From contig NDHY01000004.1 of assembly GCA_003574845.1 (NCBI GenBank), forward strand, positions 12,723-76,722: DNA of 64,000 nt. Direction: 5' to 3'. The notes beneath the pieces are model-generated. The model was not told where the DNA came from, did not search any database, and was given only the letters and a program-made list of their open reading frames with translations. Positions 13,537 to 61,952 of the stretch are shown here, in pieces. A program made the position numbers and the translations under genes. Each line of letters starts with the position of its first letter. Position 1 is the stretch's first letter. Origin of the DNA: a candidate division NPL-UPA2 bacterium Unc8. GTDB lineage: Bacteria; NPL-UPA2.

Positions 13537-13550
13537 ATGCATTTAATCGC

Positions 13551-13650
13551 TAAAAGCAGAAGCCAGAATCCAGAAGCCAGAATTCAGAATAGAAGAAGTA
13601 TAGGCTTCCAGCAACTTGCTGACTTCTGACTCCTGAATTGGTGGCGTTGT
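13551..13650. repeat. CAGAAK-unit tandem repeats arranged as an imperfect palindrome
   Basis: gcagaagccagaatccagaagccagaattcagaa ... ttctgacttctgactcctgaattgg. The same unit family recurs at 25499-25600. Confidence 0.7.
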
Positions 13651-25498: not shown

Positions 25499-25678
25499 AA
25501 GTAACCTCCCTATCTTAAACAGGAGCCAGAATTCAGAATTCAGGAGCCAGGAGCCAGAATTCAGAATTCAGAAGTCAGAAGCCAGAATTCAGAAGTCAGA
25601 ATCTGAGATTTGTCATTTCTATGTGCCTCTGTGCCTTTGTGCCTTTGTGCCTCTCTAATAGCCTACAGCCTACAGCCT
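25499..25678. repeat. Composite tandem-repeat spacer (CAGAAK units, GTGCCTYT units, CAGCCTA units) between the two transketolase subunit genes
   Basis: aggagccagaattcagaattcagg...gtgcctctgtgcctttgtgcctttgtgcctctctaatagcctacagcctacagcc. Confidence 0.8.
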
Positions 25679-26542
25679 TCAACCTTTATACATTCTGTCT
25701 ATTGATTGTTTTGCTTTTTCAATGAGGTCTGTATCAAGGCCCCCATAATGCCACTTCACCTCATTTTCCATGAAGTCAACCCCTTTCCCTTTTACCGTGT
25801 TTGCGATAATCATTACCGGGGCGCTATTTTCACTTCGGGCATATTCAATTGCCTCAGCAATCTCCTGGAAGCTATGCCCATTGATTTCCCTGACGAGCCA
25901 TCCAAAGGCTTTCCACTTGTCTGCAAATGGCTCAAGCCCCATAATCTCTTCTGTCGGGCCATCAATCATCAATTTATTCCTGTCTACAAAAGTAACCATA
26001 TTGGTAACTTTAAAGTGATGGGCTGACATTGCCGCCTCCCAGTTTGACCCCTCATTGCATTCACCATCTCCAAGTACACAATAAGTAAGCCATGATTTCT
26101 TCTGCACCCTGGCGCCAAGAGCCAAGCCAACAGATATTGGAAGACCATGCCCCAATGACCCGGTTGACACATCAACTCCTTTCACTTTAAGACTATCAAG
26201 GTGCATACCAAACGAAGACTTAAAATGATTAAATTCCCTCAAGAGTTCAAAGTCAAAATATCCTTTGCGCGCTAAGATGGCTGCATGACACACTCCAGCG
26301 TGACCCTTGCTTAACACAACCCTGTCCCTGTTTTCCAGTTCAGGGTTATTTGGTTCAATATTAAGATATTTAAAATAAAGAATTACAAGTATCTCTACCA
26401 CGCTCAAAGCGCCGCCAACATGAGCTCCACCTGCCCATCCGGTAATATCAATAATGTCTTTCCTTACTTGGTGCGCTTTCTCTTCCAATTCTTTAATTTC
26501 CTGATCCGTTATTGGCATTTTTCCTCCCTGACTATTAGTCAA
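25679..26542 (-). CDS. Transketolase N-terminal subunit (thiamine-diphosphate-binding)
   Basis: GWAGGAHVGGALSVVEILVILYF...SKGHAG and the GDGE TPP-binding motif; 287 aa. Confidence 0.85.
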   Translation of the reverse strand: MTNSQGGKMPITDQEIKELEEKAHQVRKDIIDITGWAGGAHVGGALSVVEILVILYFKYLNIEPNNPELENRDRVVLSKGHAGVCHAAILARKGYFDFELLREFNHFKSSFGMHLDSLKVKGVDVSTGSLGHGLPISVGLALGARVQKKSWLTYCVLGDGECNEGSNWEAAMSAHHFKVTNMVTFVDRNKLMIDGPTEEIMGLEPFADKWKAFGWLVREINGHSFQEIAEAIEYARSENSAPVMIIANTVKGKGVDFMENEVKWHYGGLDTDLIEKAKQSIDRMYKG

Positions 26543-40043: not shown

Positions 40044-40077
40044 AGCTGATAGCTATTTTTTCTTGACGGGATTTTGG
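40044..40077. repeat. 34-bp exact repeat agctgatagctattttttcttgacgggattttgg (copy 1), preceded by GCTGAWAGC tandem units
   Basis: Identical to 53304-53337. Contains TTGACG. Sits upstream of leuC. Confidence 0.7.
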
Positions 40078-40162
40078 GGGGTGTAGTAGGCTTTATATCA
40101 GGTAGATAGACTGATAGCTAAACCCTGAACCCTTTCCCGAACGGAGCGAGAGTAAGCTTGTT

Positions 40163-43789: not shown

Positions 43790-44815
43790 TTAAGGCAAAG
43801 AAAAATGGTCATATCCTGCTGGAAAGAGCCGGTGGGAGTTGCCTTTTTTGTCAATTAGTAACAACTCTTTTTTCTTGCTAATCTCACCTATTTTGCTTAT
43901 GGAGACCCCGAGCACATTGGTGATTGGTGATTGGTGATTGGTGATTGGTGCTCTTGTGCTCTTGTGCTCTTCTTTGTGCCTTTGTGCCTTTGTGCCTTTG
44001 TGCCTTTCTTTTATGGCTGCAGCAGTGAAGAGAAGCTGATAATCCTCTCCTCCTTCAAGAGCCAATTTTAACGGAGCTTTTCCGATTTTCTTTGCCGTTA
44101 TTCTGGTCTCATCAGAGATTGGGATTGCTTCCTCATAAATTTTTGCTCCTACCCTGCTTGCTTCGCAGATATGCATAATGTCACTGGAAAGCCCATCACT
44201 TATGTCAATCATTGAAGTTGGCTTAAATTTCTTAATAATTTCTCTCCCTTCATTAATAAGAGGCAAAGTGGGAATGTGTTTGCCCGCTAACCTTGCCGCA
44301 GCAGTTGCTCCAAGGTGCCCTGTAACAAATATTTCATCTCCTGATTTTGCCCCGCTCCGATGCACGAGAAACTTCTCGGTCACCTCACCCAGAAGAGAGA
44401 TATTTATCATCATACCTTCAGGGGACCTTGCAGTGTCACCTCCAACGATGGCAACTGCAAATCTTGCTGCTACTTTTTTTATTCCACGATAGACTTCATT
44501 GACGAATGTTACCGATGTTTCCGGGGTGAGAGCAACAGAAACAACGGCATATTTAGGAATGCCTCCCATTGCAGCAATATCACTTAAATTCACCGCCATT
44601 GCCTTCTCTCCCACCTGATATGGAGTAAGCAAGTCTGATGAAAAGTGAATATTTTCAATCAGGCTGTCCGTAGTAAATAAAATAAACTTTTTGGCGCCGC
44701 ATCTGATGACCGCAGCATCATCCCCAATTCCAGTAACTACGGCAGAGTTCACAATAGGAATCCCCTGTGTAAAGTGCTTGATTAGATTAAACTCTCCCAA
44801 CTCCTTCAGATTCAT
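43790..44815 (-). CDS. thiL: Thiamine-monophosphate kinase with in-frame repeat-encoded insertion
   Basis: N-terminal GEFNLIKHF...GIGDDAAVI (AIR-synthase-like fold) and C-terminal GYDHF ThiL motifs. An 84-bp tandem-repeat block (43917-44008) is translated in frame near the C-terminus. Confidence 0.85.
43917..44008. repeat. Composite microsatellite block (TGATTGG x4, TGCTCTTG x3, TTTGTGCC x4) lying inside the thiL coding sequence
   Basis: ggtgattggtgattggtgattggtgattggtgctcttgtgctcttgtgctcttctttgtgcctttgtgcctttgtgcctttgtgcc. Confidence 0.85.
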
Positions 44816-45959: not shown

Positions 45960-46290
45960 TCCAGTAAAGCGCTACATCTGTAGGCGGTTTTTCTGAAGAT
46001 AATTTAAATCAAACTTCGCCCATATAGTCAAGAAAAACAACTACAAATCCCAAATAAGAAGACCACCAGAGCACCAGTCACCCACAGGGGTCAGGGATCA
46101 GGGGTCAGAATCCAGAATTTAGGTTTTAGCCCTGAATCAAGTTCAGGGTAGGTTTTAGGTGTCAGGTTTTAGAGTTTAGAGTTTTGAGTTTTGAGTTTGT
46201 TTAGAGTTTAGAGTTTCGTATTTAGAGTTTAGGCTTCTTTGTGCCTCTGTGCCTCTCTAATAGCTTTCAGCCTACAGCCTGAGCGGTTTG
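45960..46290. repeat. Approximately 330-bp divergent intergenic region filled with tandem repeats (GGGGTCAG, TAGAGTTT/TTGAGTTT, GTGCCTCT, CAGCCTA units)
   Basis: cagaatccagaatttaggttttagccctgaatcaagttcagggtaggttttaggtgtcaggttttagagtttagagttttgagttttgagtttgtttagagtttagagtttcgtatttagagtttaggcttctttgtgcctctgtgcctctctaatagctttcagcctacagcc. Confidence 0.8.
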
Positions 46291-50552: not shown

Positions 50553-53221
50553 TGGATAGCAGATATGACCCCAGGTCGTTAGAGGATAAATGGTACCGAT
50601 TATGGGAAGAAAAGGAGCTTTTCCAGCCGCGTTCCCCTTCTCGCAAGAGCTACTCCATTGTCATTCCGCCTCCCAATATAACCGGCTCACTTCACTGGGG
50701 ACACGCTCTCAATAATACTCTTCAGGACATTCTCATCAGATGGCGACGAATGCAGGGTTATAATACACTCTGGATTCCGGGGGTTGACCATGCTGGAATT
50801 GCCACACAGAATGTCCTTGAAAAAGAGCTCCTAACGCAGGGGATTGACCGTCATAAGTTAGGTAGGGAAAAATTCATCAAAAAAGTGTGGGAGTGGAAAG
50901 AGCACTATGGCGGGACAATTATCCATCAATTGAAAAAGTTAGGCTCCTCCTGCGATTGGTCACGAACAAGATTCACTATGGATGAGAAATGTTCAAAAGC
51001 AGTGATGGAAATATTTGCCCGACTTTACAATGAGGGATTGATTTACCAGGCTGATTATATTGTTAATTGGTGTCCTCGCTGTCATACCGCCATTTCTGAC
51101 ATTGAGGTAGAACACAAGGAAAAGCAAGGGAAACTTTATTATATCAACTATCCGCTGGAGGGAGAAAAAAGAAAGCTCACAGTAGCAACGACGCGTCCGG
51201 AGACCATGTTGGGAGATACAGCAGTTGCCGTTCATCCAGACGACAGGAGATACCAGCATTTTATTGGCAAGACCATTATCCTCCCATTGGTTGAGAGGAA
51301 AATACCTGTTATTGCCGATGCGATTGTTAACCCGTCCTTTGGCACCGGGGCGGTGAAAATTACTCCTGCCCATGACCCAAATGATTTTGAGATTAGCTTG
51401 CGGCGAGGCCTCCCACGGATAGTAGTTATTGATGGAGAAGGGAAAATGACCCCGGCTGCCGGGCGTTACCAGGGTATGAAGCGTGATGAGTGCCGGGAAA
51501 AGGTCATCACTGATCTTGAGGAAAAAGGGTACCTCCTCAAGACCAAAGTCCATCTCCACTCTGTTGGGCATTGCTACCGCTGCAATACCACAATTGAGCC
51601 TCTAATATCAAAGCAATGGTTTCTTAGTATGAAGGAACTTGCCAGGCCGGCAATAAGGGCAGTCAAATCCGGCAAAGTCAGATTTGTGCCCAGCCGTTGG
51701 GGAGATGTATATTTAGAGTGGATGGAAAATATCAGAGACTGGTGCATCTCGCGGCAGATTTGGTGGGGGCATCGGATTCCCATCTGGCACTGTCCGGCTT
51801 GTAAAAAATCAGATGTATATCTGCCTGTGCCGAGTTCGACACGGCAGATAGGTCAAAATTCTGCGACCAAATGTAGGAGTTGCGCCTCCACAAAATTAAA
51901 GCAGGATGAGAGTGTCCTTGACACATGGTTCAGTTCCGCTCTCTGGCCCCTGTCCACACTTGGCTGGCCTGAGAAAACAGACGACATAAATCGCTTTTAT
52001 CCAACAGCAACTCTTGTTACCGGACATGAGATAATACACTTCTGGGTAGCGCGAATGATAATGATGGGAATGAAAATAGTCAAAAAACCACCATTCAGGG
52101 AAGTTCTTATTCATGGGATTGTGCGTGATGCCGAAGGAAAAAAGATGAGTAAATCTCTTGGGAATGCAATTGACCCGCTAAAAACAATTGAAACATATGG
52201 CACTGATGCCCTGCGCTTTGCTCTAATAGGAGCCACTTCACTTGGTGGTCAGGACATCTTTCTTGGTATTGAAAGTATAGAAGGGGGAAGAAACTTTGCC
52301 AATAAAATCTGGAATTTATCTCGCTTCATTCTTCTTAATTCTCAAGACTTTCAGTTTGATAAGGTAAAGCGGAGAGAGTTAATCCTTGATGAAGATGACA
52401 CCTATATCATCAGCCGTATTAATCAGGTCACGAAAACAACGAATGAATTTCTTTCTAACTACCGCTTTAACGAGATGGCAAAGACGCTTTATGAGTTTCT
52501 CTGGCACGAATTCTGCGATTGGTATATTGAACTCTCAAAGCTTCGGCTAAAGCCCTCCATTCCTGCTGAAAGAAAAACGACGCAGTGGGTCTTGCATTAT
52601 GTTCTGCGTGACAGCATGAAGCTTCTTCACCCGATAATGCCATTTATTACAGAAGAGATTTATCAGCGCCTCATCCCTGGAGAGGAAAGTATTATGATTG
52701 CACCCTGGCCGGTCTCAATGAAGAGCCGCATAAATGAGGGTGTGATTGCGCGAACAAAAAAGAAGTATGAAGTAATCACTGCTGAGAGAAAAATTAGAAG
52801 TTTTTGGAACATCCCCGCCGGGAAAAAACTAAGACATCACATAAAGCCAATTGATGCTGATGAAAGAAAAACACTGGAGAAAAACAAGGAAAAATTAATT
52901 GGTATCCTGCCTTCCGCGCACCTTATAATTGAGGAAAAACAACCACTTTCTCAGTATCCGATTTCTGCGGTTACTCCCTCAGGCACCACCATTTCTATTG
53001 ACCCGGGAGAAGACATTGACCTTCAGAAAGAAAAGGAAAAAAAAAGGAAAGAAATTTCTCTCCTTGATAAAAAGATAGAGACATCATCAAATAAGCTAAA
53101 AAACACTAATTTTCTGACAAAGGCAGCGCCAGGGGCTATTGCCCGCGAGAGAGAGAAAAAGCAGGAGCTTGAGGGACGGCGGGCAGAACTGGCAAAAATA
53201 AATCAGTTAATAATTGAATAA
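50552..53221 (+). CDS. valS: Valine--tRNA ligase
   Basis: HIGH-region (PPPNITGSLHWGHAL), KMSKS, editing domain and C-terminal coiled coil; 889 aa. The start overlaps the cimA stop. Confidence 0.95.
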   Translation: MDSRYDPRSLEDKWYRLWEEKELFQPRSPSRKSYSIVIPPPNITGSLHWGHALNNTLQDILIRWRRMQGYNTLWIPGVDHAGIATQNVLEKELLTQGIDRHKLGREKFIKKVWEWKEHYGGTIIHQLKKLGSSCDWSRTRFTMDEKCSKAVMEIFARLYNEGLIYQADYIVNWCPRCHTAISDIEVEHKEKQGKLYYINYPLEGEKRKLTVATTRPETMLGDTAVAVHPDDRRYQHFIGKTIILPLVERKIPVIADAIVNPSFGTGAVKITPAHDPNDFEISLRRGLPRIVVIDGEGKMTPAAGRYQGMKRDECREKVITDLEEKGYLLKTKVHLHSVGHCYRCNTTIEPLISKQWFLSMKELARPAIRAVKSGKVRFVPSRWGDVYLEWMENIRDWCISRQIWWGHRIPIWHCPACKKSDVYLPVPSSTRQIGQNSATKCRSCASTKLKQDESVLDTWFSSALWPLSTLGWPEKTDDINRFYPTATLVTGHEIIHFWVARMIMMGMKIVKKPPFREVLIHGIVRDAEGKKMSKSLGNAIDPLKTIETYGTDALRFALIGATSLGGQDIFLGIESIEGGRNFANKIWNLSRFILLNSQDFQFDKVKRRELILDEDDTYIISRINQVTKTTNEFLSNYRFNEMAKTLYEFLWHEFCDWYIELSKLRLKPSIPAERKTTQWVLHYVLRDSMKLLHPIMPFITEEIYQRLIPGEESIMIAPWPVSMKSRINEGVIARTKKKYEVITAERKIRSFWNIPAGKKLRHHIKPIDADERKTLEKNKEKLIGILPSAHLIIEEKQPLSQYPISAVTPSGTTISIDPGEDIDLQKEKEKKRKEISLLDKKIETSSNKLKNTNFLTKAAPGAIAREREKKQELEGRRAELAKINQLIIE

Positions 53222-53235
53222 CAGTAACTGTTTAC

Positions 53236-53270
53236 GGGGTCAGGGGTCGGGGACTTGACCACTTGACCCC
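53236..53270 (+). terminator. GC hairpin (GGGGTCA...TGACCCC) downstream of valS, possible terminator
   Basis: Inverted repeat read directly. It is not followed by an immediate T-run. Confidence 0.3.
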
Positions 53271-53303
53271 TTGAATCCTTAAGACTGACGGCTGAATGCT
53301 GAG

Positions 53304-53337
53304 AGCTGATAGCTATTTTTTCTTGACGGGATTTTGG
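53304..53337. repeat. 34-bp exact repeat agctgatagctattttttcttgacgggattttgg (copy 2)
   Basis: Identical to 40044-40077 and, like copy 1, preceded by GCTGAWNGC tandem units. Confidence 0.7.
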
Positions 53338-53354
53338 GTTTTGGAATTTACCTA

Positions 53355-53396
53355 CCCCTAACGGGGTAAACGAAGTAGCTCGGTTATTTTAAGTTA
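53355..53396. repeat. Hairpin (CCCC-TAAC-GGGG) followed by repeat AAACGAAGTAGCTCGGTTATTTTAAGTTA (copy 1)
   Basis: A second copy (27 of 29 identical) lies at 61924-61952, also preceded by a GC hairpin. A partial TAACGGGGTAAAC copy is at 54404-54416. Confidence 0.6.
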
Positions 53397-53495
53397 TCTG
53401 AAATTAGAAACCCTTGTGATGAAAGAAAAAGGGAAAGAGAAACGAGTAAAGATACGAACAGAATAACCAGAAGTTTGGTGAGGGAGAGATAAAAC

Positions 53496-53975
53496 ATGCG
53501 AAAATTAAAATTATATCTGGATGCTTCCGTTTGGAATTTCTTTTTTGCAGATGATGCCCCTGAAAAAAGGGATGTAACCAGGGGATTTTTTAATTCTATC
53601 GAAGAAGACGCCTATGAAATCTATATTTCTGAGGTGGTAATTAGAGAGATAAATGATGCACCTGACCCCAAAAGGAAAACGTTGCTTGATTTAATTAATA
53701 AATACACCCCTGTGGAATTAGAGATTACAGAAGAAGCAAATGAATTAACCGAAGTTTACATAAACAACGGTATTGTTCCTAAGGCCAAAAGAAATGATGC
53801 GTTTCACGTTGCTATTGCTACAGCTTTCGAAATGGATGCGGTTATCACCTGGAATTATCAACATCTGGCTAATCTACGAAAGGCTGAGTTGTTTAATGGT
53901 GTTAATTTAGGAAGAGGATATACCAAACGATTAGAAATGGTTACGCCCATGGAGGTGAGTAGATATGAAGGTTGA
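53496..53975 (+). CDS. PIN-domain (VapC-like) nuclease
   Basis: YLDASVW N-terminal acidic motif, SEVVIREI, NDAFHVAIATAFEMDAVITWN, consistent with the PIN Asp/Glu quartet; 159 aa. Confidence 0.55.
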   Translation: MRKLKLYLDASVWNFFFADDAPEKRDVTRGFFNSIEEDAYEIYISEVVIREINDAPDPKRKTLLDLINKYTPVELEITEEANELTEVYINNGIVPKAKRNDAFHVAIATAFEMDAVITWNYQHLANLRKAELFNGVNLGRGYTKRLEMVTPMEVSRYEG

Positions 53976-54135
53976 TAAATCACTCCAGGAAGTATGGGAC
54001 TGGAAAGATAAGGTCTACCGGGAGACAAAGCATCTTTCAGTAAGAGAAACAGCCAAGAAGATCCATGAGGATGTCCAGCAGATTAAGAAAAAATACGGGT
54101 TGAAACTCAAAACGCTTCATCCGTTACAGAAATAA
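53965..54135 (+). CDS. Small protein (56 aa) translationally coupled to the PIN gene
   Basis: Read by hand: ATG at 53965 with GGAGGTGA SD, overlapping the PIN stop. MKVDKSLQEVWDWKDKVYRETKHLSVRETAKKIHEDVQQIKKKYGLKLKTLHPLQK. Confidence 0.4.
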   Translation: MKVDKSLQEVWDWKDKVYRETKHLSVRETAKKIHEDVQQIKKKYGLKLKTLHPLQK

Positions 54136-54139
54136 GCTG

Positions 54140-54248
54140 CAAAAATAAACTTATTCAACGATATTTAAGGCATTCAGATGTAACAACGACGTTGAGGTAT
54201 TATATGGATGTGTTTCCGGAGGACCTGGAAGAGGCGGCAGAGGTGTGA
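54140..54248 (+). pseudogene. Tyrosine-recombinase (integrase) C-terminal fragment
   Basis: The in-frame translation ...LIQRYLRHSDVTTTLRYYMDVFPEDLEEAAEV carries the R-H-x-x-x-TT-x-x-Y catalytic-tail motif, but only about 35 codons remain after an upstream stop. Confidence 0.5.
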
Positions 54249-54558
54249 GCAGAGAGGTAATCAAAACTTACAGATATAGTTAGAAATAGATGAAGTACTT
54301 CGTCGGGCACACAAGTCCTAAAGACTTGGGTCGTGCCAATTTGGGAGTATAAATCCCATTAGAAGTATCAATTTTGCTACCCACTAAGAAGACATAATTT
54401 CTAACGGGGTAAACAAACTCAAATTTCAAAACTCAAAACTCAAAAGAAAGAGGAGAAAAGGACGGTTCACTTAATTGCATCAAAAAGGAAGGAAGAGAAG
54501 GGATGGAAATTCTATTTTTATTTCCACTTAAAGGCAGAGAAAAGAAAAGGAGAGTGAT

Positions 54559-55095
54559 ATGGCAAGAAGAAAGACTGATGGCAAGATGATATCATGTAAG
54601 AAATGCGGAAAACCTTTAAGGTCTTTCATTTTTAAGTCATCGACATGGAAACATGAATGCGATGAATGCGACGACGGATACTATTGCGGAGCCTGTATTA
54701 AGAAGTGGGAAAGGACACTTGTATGCGATAAATGTTATAAAGCGCTTACGATGTTTAAGATTACAAGTGAGAGCAAATTTGTAGGATACAAAGTAGTGAG
54801 TGAGTTTAATTTAATCATAATTGAAGCGATATTCACATCCATGTCAGAGGTGAAAGAAGAAATGACGAGGCAGGCCTTTAGGATAAAGGCAAATGCGGTA
54901 ACAAATTTCAAAATCGTGGAACAAAAAGAAACAACTGAGGACGAGACCTATGTTCCAAAGTATAAGTATACAAAAGAAACATCTCCTATTAGATTCGAAT
55001 TCGAAAAAGAACGAAGCCGAAGAACTTACACACGCTATGGAGCCCAGGGTATGCCTGTCATATTACAGAAGTGTTCGAGGTCAGCAAATGGATAA
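54559..55095 (+). CDS. Double zinc-ribbon protein fused to a YbjQ/DUF74-like domain
   Basis: N-terminal CKKCG...CDECDDGYYCGACIKK...CDKCYK, then FRIKANAVTNFKIVE resembling the YbjQ GANAVVGVRF motif. Confidence 0.5.
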   Translation: MARRKTDGKMISCKKCGKPLRSFIFKSSTWKHECDECDDGYYCGACIKKWERTLVCDKCYKALTMFKITSESKFVGYKVVSEFNLIIIEAIFTSMSEVKEEMTRQAFRIKANAVTNFKIVEQKETTEDETYVPKYKYTKETSPIRFEFEKERSRRTYTRYGAQGMPVILQKCSRSANG

Positions 55096-55651
55096 GCAAT
55101 ATTATAAGGTAGTTATTACCAAAATCGGAGGGGGAGTCGCAAGATTAACAGCTGCCAGGGCATTAAGAGCTCTTAAGTCTATCTCGTTGAGCGAGGCTTT
55201 AGATTTAATTGACAATGCCCCCTACACCGTTCATGAAGGCTCGAAAGCAGAGGCTGATTGGCTAGCAAGCAAACTGCGCCAAACCGGTACAAATGTAATC
55301 ATCAAGGAGATTGTGACAGAATCAAAACCAAAGTCTATGATTATGCAAACTGAAAACCAAGATAAAAGTGAAGGGAGGGTTAAAATGGCAACGGGGAAAC
55401 CCCTTTTCGCTGTCTTTGCAATAATAATAGTACTTATCGGTGCAGTCTTAGTCTCTTATAATCGGGGCATCAAAATCAAAGAGCAGGTAGAGCCTTTGAT
55501 TGCAGCGCTCAGGGACAAGAATTGGCATGTCCGAGAGAAAGCAGCCGAGGCATTGGAGAAGATAACAGGTCGGATTTTCGGGGAAGACCCGGTAAAATGG
55601 CAGGAGTGGTGGGAAGAAAATAAGGAAACTTTTCTAAAAGGAGAAAATTAG
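55088..55651 (+). CDS. Membrane protein with ribosomal-L7/L12-C-terminal-like domain and C-terminal HEAT-like repeat
   Basis: The likely start is ATG 55088, overlapping the upstream stop. KVVITKIGGGVARLTAARALRALKSISLSEALDLIDNAPYTVHEGSKAEADWLASKL resembles the L7/L12 CTD. One TM helix follows, then a DKNWHVREKAAEALEKI HEAT-like repeat. Confidence 0.45.
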   Translation: MDKQYYKVVITKIGGGVARLTAARALRALKSISLSEALDLIDNAPYTVHEGSKAEADWLASKLRQTGTNVIIKEIVTESKPKSMIMQTENQDKSEGRVKMATGKPLFAVFAIIIVLIGAVLVSYNRGIKIKEQVEPLIAALRDKNWHVREKAAEALEKITGRIFGEDPVKWQEWWEENKETFLKGEN

Positions 55652-61783: not shown

Positions 61784-61894
61784 TGAAAGAAAGAGCACCT
61801 GAAAAATGAATACAGACCAAACCTTTTTTACCAACGAGCCCGGCTCTACCCTGCTATATCTGATGGAAATGCTTCGCAAAATATACCAATTTGC

Positions 61895-61952
61895 CTGCCC
61901 GCCAATCTTTGTGGCGGGGGCATAAACGAAATAGTTCGGTTATTTTAAGTTA
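61895..61952 (+). terminator. GC hairpin (GCCCGCC...GGCGGGG) followed by repeat AAACGAAATAGTTCGGTTATTTTAAGTTA (copy 2); probable purK terminator
   Basis: Stem read directly. The T-rich repeat follows. Same architecture as 53355-53396. Confidence 0.45.

Follow-up and report, generated by a model that had tools for sequence, protein, structure and literature searches.

Genes and Features of the Islet

The stretch of DNA analyzed in this work (the window) comprises 64,000 nucleotides from the candidate division NPL-UPA2 bacterium Unc8 (GenBank assembly GCA_003574845.1, contig NDHY01000004.1, positions 12,723–76,722 of the forward strand). It contains a small islet in the 1.34 kb gap between valS, which ends at 53221, and the next gene, which encodes a 178-aa protein (54559–55095). 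Positions given without a locus label are those of the window, and the features placed by them lie on the + strand. A VapC-like PIN nuclease gene, a coupled 56-aa gene, a C-terminal remnant of a tyrosine recombinase, hairpins and repeat elements had been described here earlier from the letters alone (the original prediction). Analysis of open reading frames (ORFs), reading frames, repeats and folds revealed all of these parts where they had been placed.

From left to right, the islet comprises an element of plasmid type designated E1 (53367–53400), an intact 159-aa gene for a putative toxin or nuclease (the PIN gene, 53496–53975), the gene of its 56-aa partner, a putative antitoxin (53965–54135), the last ~37 codons of a dead integrase gene, int (54140–54260), and a short region of the kind that follows int on plasmids (54257–54302). 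A search of the window against plasmid loci found plasmid-like stretches only at 53367–53400, 53496–54134 and 54140–54302. The islet extends over about 53367–54302, perhaps over 53353–54414. The PIN product is 100% identical to the hypothetical protein B9J77_02790 of NPL-UPA2 Unc8, and its context from valS to fabH is identical in every assembly that carries it. Fetched loci and contigs carrying relatives of PIN or int are referred to below by L-numbered labels (L001 etc.).

The PIN Protein and Its 56-aa Partner

Homologues of the PIN protein (n = 354) are nearly all 159 aa long, have 55–82% identity and come from Omnitrophota, Elusimicrobiota, Nitrospirota and other groups. The AlphaFold2 (AF2) model, for which 24 homologues were used, reached a predicted local distance difference test (pLDDT) value of 89.5 and has an alternating strand/helix (beta-alpha) pattern. 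In a Foldseek search of PDB, almost all of the top 17 matches were VapC toxins (VapC11, Shigella VapC, VapC15, VapC21), with probability 1.00 and template modeling (TM) scores of 0.55–0.67; a PIN-like Cas9 accessory protein, 8wmm_G, was found among them. Both the model and these matches correspond to a parallel beta-sheet enclosed between helices, and the predicted assignment to the PIN fold is solid. As to its fold, the protein is thus PIN/VapC-like, as had been proposed. Some homologues carry precomputed PF01850 or PF13470 matches; against Pfam PIN_3, the PIN protein scored 19.3 bits, below the cut-off of 27. A sequence-profile search of PDB gave no match for the PIN protein or its partner.

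Three acidic positions, D/E9, E51 and D101, are conserved across the family alignment. In a low-probability alignment with Shigella VapC, which covers the N-terminal half only, D9 is placed opposite D7 and E51 opposite E42. The catalytic acidic residues had been proposed as a test of the PIN assignment, and its outcome is divided: these three are kept, and the fourth position is occupied by Asn or His. The catalytic competence of the protein is plausible but not certain. Longer PIN homologues were considered as possible PIN–partner fusion proteins and rejected, as they carry N-terminal extensions instead.

The 56-aa ORF overlaps the PIN ORF by 11 nt, and GGAGGTGA is located 7–8 nt before its ATG. 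By tblastn, a partner homologue was revealed directly 3′ of PIN in at least 59 of 80 genome loci from many phyla (49 at E ≤ 1e-3, 36 with the identical 11-nt overlap). The partner had been described as overlapping the toxin end and following it, and this arrangement is conserved in these 59 of 80 loci; two small adjacent genes in the same orientation with conserved synteny are what is looked for in a toxin–antitoxin (TA) pair. In 25 full-length copies, third codon positions show double the variation of first and second ones and no internal stops are present, from which it follows that the ORF is a real gene. AF2 predicts a two-helix hairpin with modest confidence.

The partner has no relative in Pfam, NCBIfam, PADLOC, PHROG or PDB and is annotated everywhere as hypothetical or under spurious names. 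A search of both proteins with hidden Markov models (HMMs) against TA databases had been suggested earlier as a check; in PADLOC neither protein has a match, and the Pfam and NCBIfam results for the partner were negative, as said. Upstream of the PIN gene, where a classical VapB might be encoded, no + strand ORF of at least 30 aa is present (53222–53495). A distant pair of the same architecture was found on the Leptospira interrogans plasmid pLiSL47 (L171 1486–2131), right after the rep gene; it consists of a 153-aa PIN gene, labeled VapC family toxin in RefSeq, and an overlapping 63-aa hypothetical gene. From the architecture and the genomic company of the two genes we infer that they most likely form a toxin-first TA pair, the antitoxin of which would be only a toxin-binding peptide.

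It should be mentioned that on an Omnitrophota contig (L008 2894–4987) the PIN and 56-aa genes are parted by an insertion of ~1.45 kb, and the PIN match ends at residue 152.

The Truncated Integrase Tail

An open frame (+3) begins 4 nt past the stop of the 56-aa gene, reads KNKLIQRYLRHSDVTTTLRYYMDVFPEDLEEAAEV and ends with a stop codon at 54248; no recombinase body lies upstream of it. The tail retains the box II His and the catalytic Tyr region, and its premature TGA (54246–54248) precedes the ancestral stop (54258–54260). Against a model of int 3′ ends it gave 120 bits (nhmmer, E 1.9e-35), its translation is 85% identical over 33 aa to the C-terminus of the intact 205-aa recombinase of L005 (tblastn), and its nucleotide identity to dozens of plasmid int genes is 80–88%. 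A tail of ~35 recombinase codons without a body, as originally predicted, is therefore present. The claim that the stretch would be significant in a database search stands for these homologues but not for family HMMs alone: with the 53-aa tail frame as query, the latter gave no significant match (NCBIfam XerA, E 0.044; no Pfam integrase). Significance was reached only against true homologues, which were located via PIN neighborhoods. The complete catalytic set R...K...HxxR...H/W...Y is absent from the fragment, which holds the last ~37 codons only.

Compared with a consensus built from 75 live int tails, the tail has 20 differences in 108 positions, and 16 of these variants also segregate among live int genes, mostly at third codon positions. 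The four changes unique to the window are V→I, G→R, V→M and the TGA stop. The tail is best read as a dead fragment with little private decay. No other int-like sequence or int-tail copy was found in the 64 kb of the window.

The junction at which the stop of the 56-aa gene is followed by GCTGCAAAAA (the FKNAKL region of int) is common to the window, L002 and L008, and in L001, L005, L006 and L106 the tail at this junction is trimmed further. Since the same truncated junction occurs in other genomes, int was already a stump when it arrived and did not decay at this locus.

Small Plasmids With parA, repA and int

In the closest relatives (L001, L002, L005 and L006), tail sequence adjoins the PIN pair as well. 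In L005 and L106, an intact 205-aa int gene lies directly upstream of the same pair: that of L005 ends with ...LVQRYLGHSDVATTLRYYVDVFPEDLEEAAEMLAEK, the PIN pair begins 10 nt further on, and a second, partial tail copy follows the pair. The plasmid int family consists of proteins of 197–220 aa that contain the catalytic domain only (Pfam Phage_integrase, E 6.8e-34, residues 7–191 of 205). It yielded 538 matches; the 120 listed have 73–93% identity, nearly all above 80%.

The int genes are accompanied by parA, a 78-aa gene and a RepA_C replication gene. Terminal overlaps close six contigs into circles of 7.7–12.4 kb, which therefore represent small plasmids; the plasmid family originates from metagenomes of groundwater and sediment, and L086–L165 come from Hainich and other groundwater samples. 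No close int relative was found in PLSDB (the best had 33% identity), which contains only distant PIN relatives, and IMG/VR, scanned for exact patterns of the E element and the int tail, gave no matches. In the literature searched, neither an int-tail cassette system nor these plasmids were found described.

One 17.3-kb contig, Ga0209211_10006265 (L083/L141, L114), contains the parA-repA-int backbone twice, each time complete and with a different int allele, and is a cointegrate of two related plasmids. Fusion of such plasmids therefore occurs.

Cassettes and Tail Copies Behind int

Different genes occupy the position behind int on these plasmids. The PIN pair was revealed there in L005 and L106, BrnT/BrnA-like pairs in L087, L102 and L106, ThsB-type TIR genes in L102, an unassigned 503-aa protein in L083 and its relatives, and Band_7 and TPR proteins in other loci; HEPN/NTase and PIN_3/RHH modules are also carried by these plasmids. 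The order of the cassettes is not constant: in L106 the PIN pair precedes BrnTA, and in L087 BrnTA comes first.

Extra int-tail copies, located 3′ of int or around the PIN pair, were found in 15 loci (L001, L002, L005, L083–L085, L087, L102, L106, L113, L126, L132, L141, L146 and L151), and ~85% of the int loci have no extra copy. Immediately upstream of a cassette, the tail has a cassette-specific end: AAATAG-GAGGAGAACT before PIN in L005, L106 and L001, with the variant AAATAG-GAGGAACCT in L002, and ...ATAATATTGTTTAG before the BrnT cassette in L087 and L106. The conserved post-int region comes after the last tail copy. The ends of the copies vary; the left end lies at −85 to −10 codons, and the copy of L083 is devoid of the last 17 nt.

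Four different hairpins with GC stems, most of them starting with CCTGCC, share a single insertion point in the tail, GGATG^TGTTTCC, and are confined to copies located downstream of cassettes. They are found in L001 (3875–3992 and 4648–4760), L005 (1413–1524), L106 (3053–3170), L087 (6231–6376), L132 (1437–1529) and L151 (1684–1760).

In L150 (1100–1190), an int remnant with an internal deletion, in which the SPRQVQ region is joined to the EEAAEML tail, stands ahead of the post-int region.

Repeats at the Borders of the Islet

The left end of the plasmid-like DNA is formed by E1, TAAACGAAGTAGCTCGGTTATTTTAAGTTATCTG (53367–53400), which belongs to the plasmid post-int type: it is 97% identical over 34 nt to L121 4906–4939, a match that begins 7 nt past the int stop codon of this plasmid contig. 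The E element proper, AAACGAAGTAGCTCGGTTATTTTAAGTTA, occupies 53368–53396 (AAACGAA...TTAAGTTA), and AAACGAARTAGYTCGGTTATTTTAAGTTA is found at 53368 and 61924, whereas shuffled sequences give an expectation of 0. The second E copy (61924–61952) is located 3′ of purK and has no cargo gene; repeat search and folding revealed a CCTGCC-type hairpin before it (the whole feature spans 61892–61952). The AAACGAA repeat had been thought to be spread with a mobile element, and the 97% match 3′ of the L121 int supports its spread with mobile DNA. At the other end, the post-int region (54257–54302) continues past the tail, is colinear with L158 340–501 (78% over 162 nt), contains a degenerate second E-like core, ATAGATGAAGTACTTCG, and forms the right end of clear plasmid-like DNA.

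A 14-nt exact direct repeat, CTAACGGGGTAAAC, flanks the whole block, with E-like cores on both sides. Its left copy (53358–53371) is the 3′ arm of a mini-hairpin, ACCCCTAACGGGGT (53353–53368; repeat search and folding), and its right copy (54401–54414) belongs to a ~60-nt hairpin, CCCATTAGAAGT...ATTTCTAACGGGG (54353–54414; fold z −2.3). Both belong, as arms, to a hairpin family dispersed on plasmids and in other genomes.

This palindromic family, CCCCGTTAGAA...TTCTAACGGGG, is 26–78 nt long with a variable loop and is common to the plasmids, a Nitrospinota genome and the window. Its copies are located at L093 1792–1839, L142 7348–7395, L126 4282–4344, L130 1303–1328 and L022 3–80, and at 54353–54414 and 53353–53368 of the window; the copy of L126 sits within an int tail. 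The hairpin ahead of the second E copy (61892–61922) resembles those inserted in plasmid int tails. By eye, neither a sigma-70 promoter nor a loxP-like inverted repeat fits the E element convincingly.

Origin of the Islet and Alternative Explanations

It is likely, with a probability of about 0.7, that the islet is a plasmid-derived block fixed in the chromosome, composed of the PIN and 56-aa module and an int stump that already existed. The VapC-like PIN nuclease would be the likely toxin of this two-gene module, and the coupled helical protein of 56 aa would most likely bind and neutralize it; the two would form a TA or addiction pair of inverted order without a DNA-binding antitoxin domain. 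The module carries with it the dead 37-codon int stump and a few dozen bases of post-int plasmid DNA. On the plasmids, cassettes accumulate directly behind int, with partial int-tail copies between them, and the PIN–partner–stump block is an old composite, transferred as a whole among plasmids and the chromosomes of various phyla. It arrived with the stump ready-made, and the latter is unable to act as a recombinase. The parts of the islet, their conservation, the fold, the plasmid source and the common junction are established by the data; the toxicity, its neutralization and the route of entry into the chromosome are proposed.

Several observations weigh against this interpretation. Since the islet is common to all assemblies that carry the PIN protein, there is no empty site that could prove the insertion. 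With only four unique changes in 108 nt, the tail could be young or kept for a function. The match of the PIN protein to Pfam PIN (PF01850; E 7.8e-4, 20.5 bits) is below the gathering threshold of 23.6, neither protein has a match in PADLOC or PHROGs, and the model of the partner is of low confidence (pLDDT 68.5) and shows no detectable relation to an antitoxin family. After strand 4, the PIN family has TWNYQH, in which N120 and H123 are invariant and an acidic residue is missing. According to the classification of PIN domains, the fourth acidic residue is almost always invariant and four acidic residues are required for activity (PMC5499597). Alternatively, the two proteins would be no TA pair, the nuclease having a small regulatory or targeting subunit (e.g., as another defence or plasmid-maintenance factor) or the PIN protein being catalytically inactive. 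In favor of this, the fourth acidic position is Asn or His in all PIN members, the partner is devoid of the DNA-binding fold typical of VapB, 55–82% identity across phyla is unusually high for a TA pair, and the Cas9 accessory protein 8wmm_G is among the structural matches. We regard this alternative as rather improbable, since the size, tight coupling and mobility of the pair and its company of BrnTA, HEPN/NTase and PIN_3/RHH modules are as expected of an addiction module, and the Leptospira homologue is called a VapC family toxin in RefSeq. The original prediction had seen in the region the footprint of a decayed integrative element; the mobile origin is upheld, but decay in place is not, given the junction shared with L002 and L008 and the plasmid source. 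For the same reason it is very unlikely that an element with its own integrase inserted after valS and lost the integrase body at this locus. A recombinase tail does adjoin accessory genes, E-like cores lie on both sides of the block, and the 14-nt repeat CTAACGGGGTAAAC brackets it (estimated chance expectation within 1.3 kb, ~0.01). However, the truncation found in the unrelated genomes L002 and L008 is older than the insertion, on plasmids int lies upstream and not downstream of the PIN pair, and the copies of the repeat are arms of hairpins that are themselves dispersed.

Two mechanisms may account for the build-up of cassettes behind int: capture driven by int within its own tail, which is rather unlikely, or plasmid fusion followed by deletion. 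In the former case, the int-tail copy would be a working recombination site and no dead stump, int would insert and excise circular cassettes in its own 3′ end, and each cassette would bring a replacement tail that keeps int intact, as in an integron-like capture platform. The islet would then be a cassette that had reached a chromosome and could still be mobilized in trans. This would agree with the occupation of the same post-int position by different cassettes, each with a characteristic tail end, with the swapped order of PIN and BrnTA in L106 and L087, and with the hairpins that interrupt GGATG^TGTTTCC only in tail copies downstream of cassettes. Tail copies are also 80–88% identical to live int, even in chromosomes of other phyla. 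On the other hand, both ends of the copies are variable (from −85 to −10 codons, with the deletions of L083 and L150), so that they look like deletion debris, unlike the products of precise site-specific exchange. Plasmid fusion does occur, as the two-backbone contig L083/L114 indicates, some 85% of int loci show no extra tail copy, neither a circular cassette junction nor an empty/occupied pair was observed, and an int of 197–205 aa is too short for a core-binding domain. Capture by int can therefore be put forward only tentatively. The same low expectation applies to the broader idea of an undescribed gene-capture platform on plasmids of uncultivated groundwater and sediment bacteria, in which cassettes would insert in the 3′ end of the plasmid's own int and supply replacement tails, producing arrays with displaced tails and hairpins, and the islet would be an exported cassette that is still competent for recombination.

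Comparison With Known Systems

The PIN pair resembles VapBC in that its closest PIN structures are VapC and in that it consists of two small, overlapping, co-transcribed genes carried by plasmids and by mobile islets. The PIN protein likewise keeps the acidic residue following strand 1, the one of the helix behind strand 2 and the one at helix 4. In contrast to VapBC, the toxin gene comes first, and the 56-aa helix-hairpin partner has no RHH, AbrB, Phd or HTH domain or family. The PIN protein also differs by TWNYQH after strand 4, a conserved 35-residue C-terminal extension and its sub-threshold Pfam PIN score. As far as these comparisons go, the pair is new as a version of the VapC type, with inverted order, a partner without known family and an altered active site.

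The plasmid arrays share several features with integron cassettes, including the TA cassettes of sedentary chromosomal integrons. Both are compact, mostly promoter-less and rich in TA and defence genes, and both are stacked by a tyrosine recombinase gene; the same cassette occurs in differing positions and hosts, and hairpin-forming sequences stand at the boundaries. However, the plasmid int contains only the catalytic domain, is not an IntI with its integron-specific extra domain and is co-oriented with the cassettes instead of divergent, and its recombination is putative. The boundary repeats are int-tail fragments, apparently in place of attC, with fixed-point hairpins in about half of them. 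For archaeal integrases of the SSV1 type, attP lies inside the integrase gene; in SSV1 it is near the 5′ part, and integration splits and inactivates int. There, too, int fragments flank the integrated DNA because the att site overlaps int, but on the plasmids int is intact and only tail fragments are duplicated.

Another parallel is offered by genomic islands that accumulate in tandem where a target gene ends (tRNA genes; trmE for SGI1), as insertion restores the 3′ end and displaced 3′ fragments are left as direct repeats (PMC8409611). In contrast to this type of accretion, the target would here be the plasmid's own int gene, and the inserted units have no integrase. Cointegrate formation followed by deletion accounts for int fragments that differ in their ends and for the two-backbone contig L083/L114, but alone it leaves unexplained why the remnants observed are restricted to the last ~40% of int and why the hairpin point is fixed.

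The islet itself is a short stretch of DNA gained by horizontal transfer, with a probable addiction or defence module; it is of value for annotation and otherwise unremarkable. The PIN and 56-aa module is widespread and very conserved, being present in over 160 genomes at species level; metagenomes contain 354 clusters of PIN proteins and 77 of the partner. Should the nuclease be toxic and neutralizable, the partner would represent a new class of antitoxins for PIN toxins. The cassette architecture of the plasmids, which have no close relative in PLSDB, is a more interesting lead than the islet: if int drives the pile-up of cassettes, it would be a second, independent way of building arrays besides integrons.

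Host-Type Repeats and Neighboring Genes

The first 130 nt after valS are host-like intergenic DNA. Just 3′ of the valS stop, a terminator-like hairpin of heptamer repeats, GGGGTCA...TGACCCC, is located at 53230–53276 (fold −26.9 kcal/mol, z −3.26). It has no match in the plasmid loci, similar heptamer arrays are present in many intergenic regions of the window, and we regard it as host-type and outside the mobile DNA. It is followed by an intergenic repeat of the host that contains TTGACG (53284–53338; 93% over 55 nt to a second copy). Part of the latter (53304–53338) is repeated exactly over 35 nt at 40044–40078, upstream of leuC. Repeat search and folding confirmed the hairpins and repeat elements described earlier for the islet, together with their copies after purK and upstream of leuC. 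The suggestion that this repeat, given as 34 bp, was spread by the element is not supported: the exact repeat of 35 nt has no match in any fetched PIN or plasmid locus, for which reason it was rejected as part of the mobile element, and it looks like host intergenic DNA.

The islet contains no tRNA or Rfam family; in an Rfam search of the whole window at gathering thresholds and an E-value search of the islet, the sole match was a distant tRNA-Glu. A scan of 52900–54900 for promoters and terminators revealed no promoter-like site.

Two genes follow the islet at 54559–55651. The first encodes the 178-aa protein, which has weak similarity to a double zinc ribbon, and the second a protein with a ribosomal L7/L12 C-terminal-like domain and a HEAT repeat, called as 187 aa in public assemblies. 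Most intergenic regions of the window carry tandem repeats of 7–8 nt (CAGAAGC/CAGAATT, TTTGTGCC, TAGAGTT/GAGTTTT, GCTGATA and GGGGTCA), which in many cases form hairpins with complementary repeats, e.g., at 13543–13603, 25520–25680, 43962–44017, 46085–46280, 53230–53314 and 54415–54445. These arrays are similar to the short tandemly repeated repetitive sequences of cyanobacteria.

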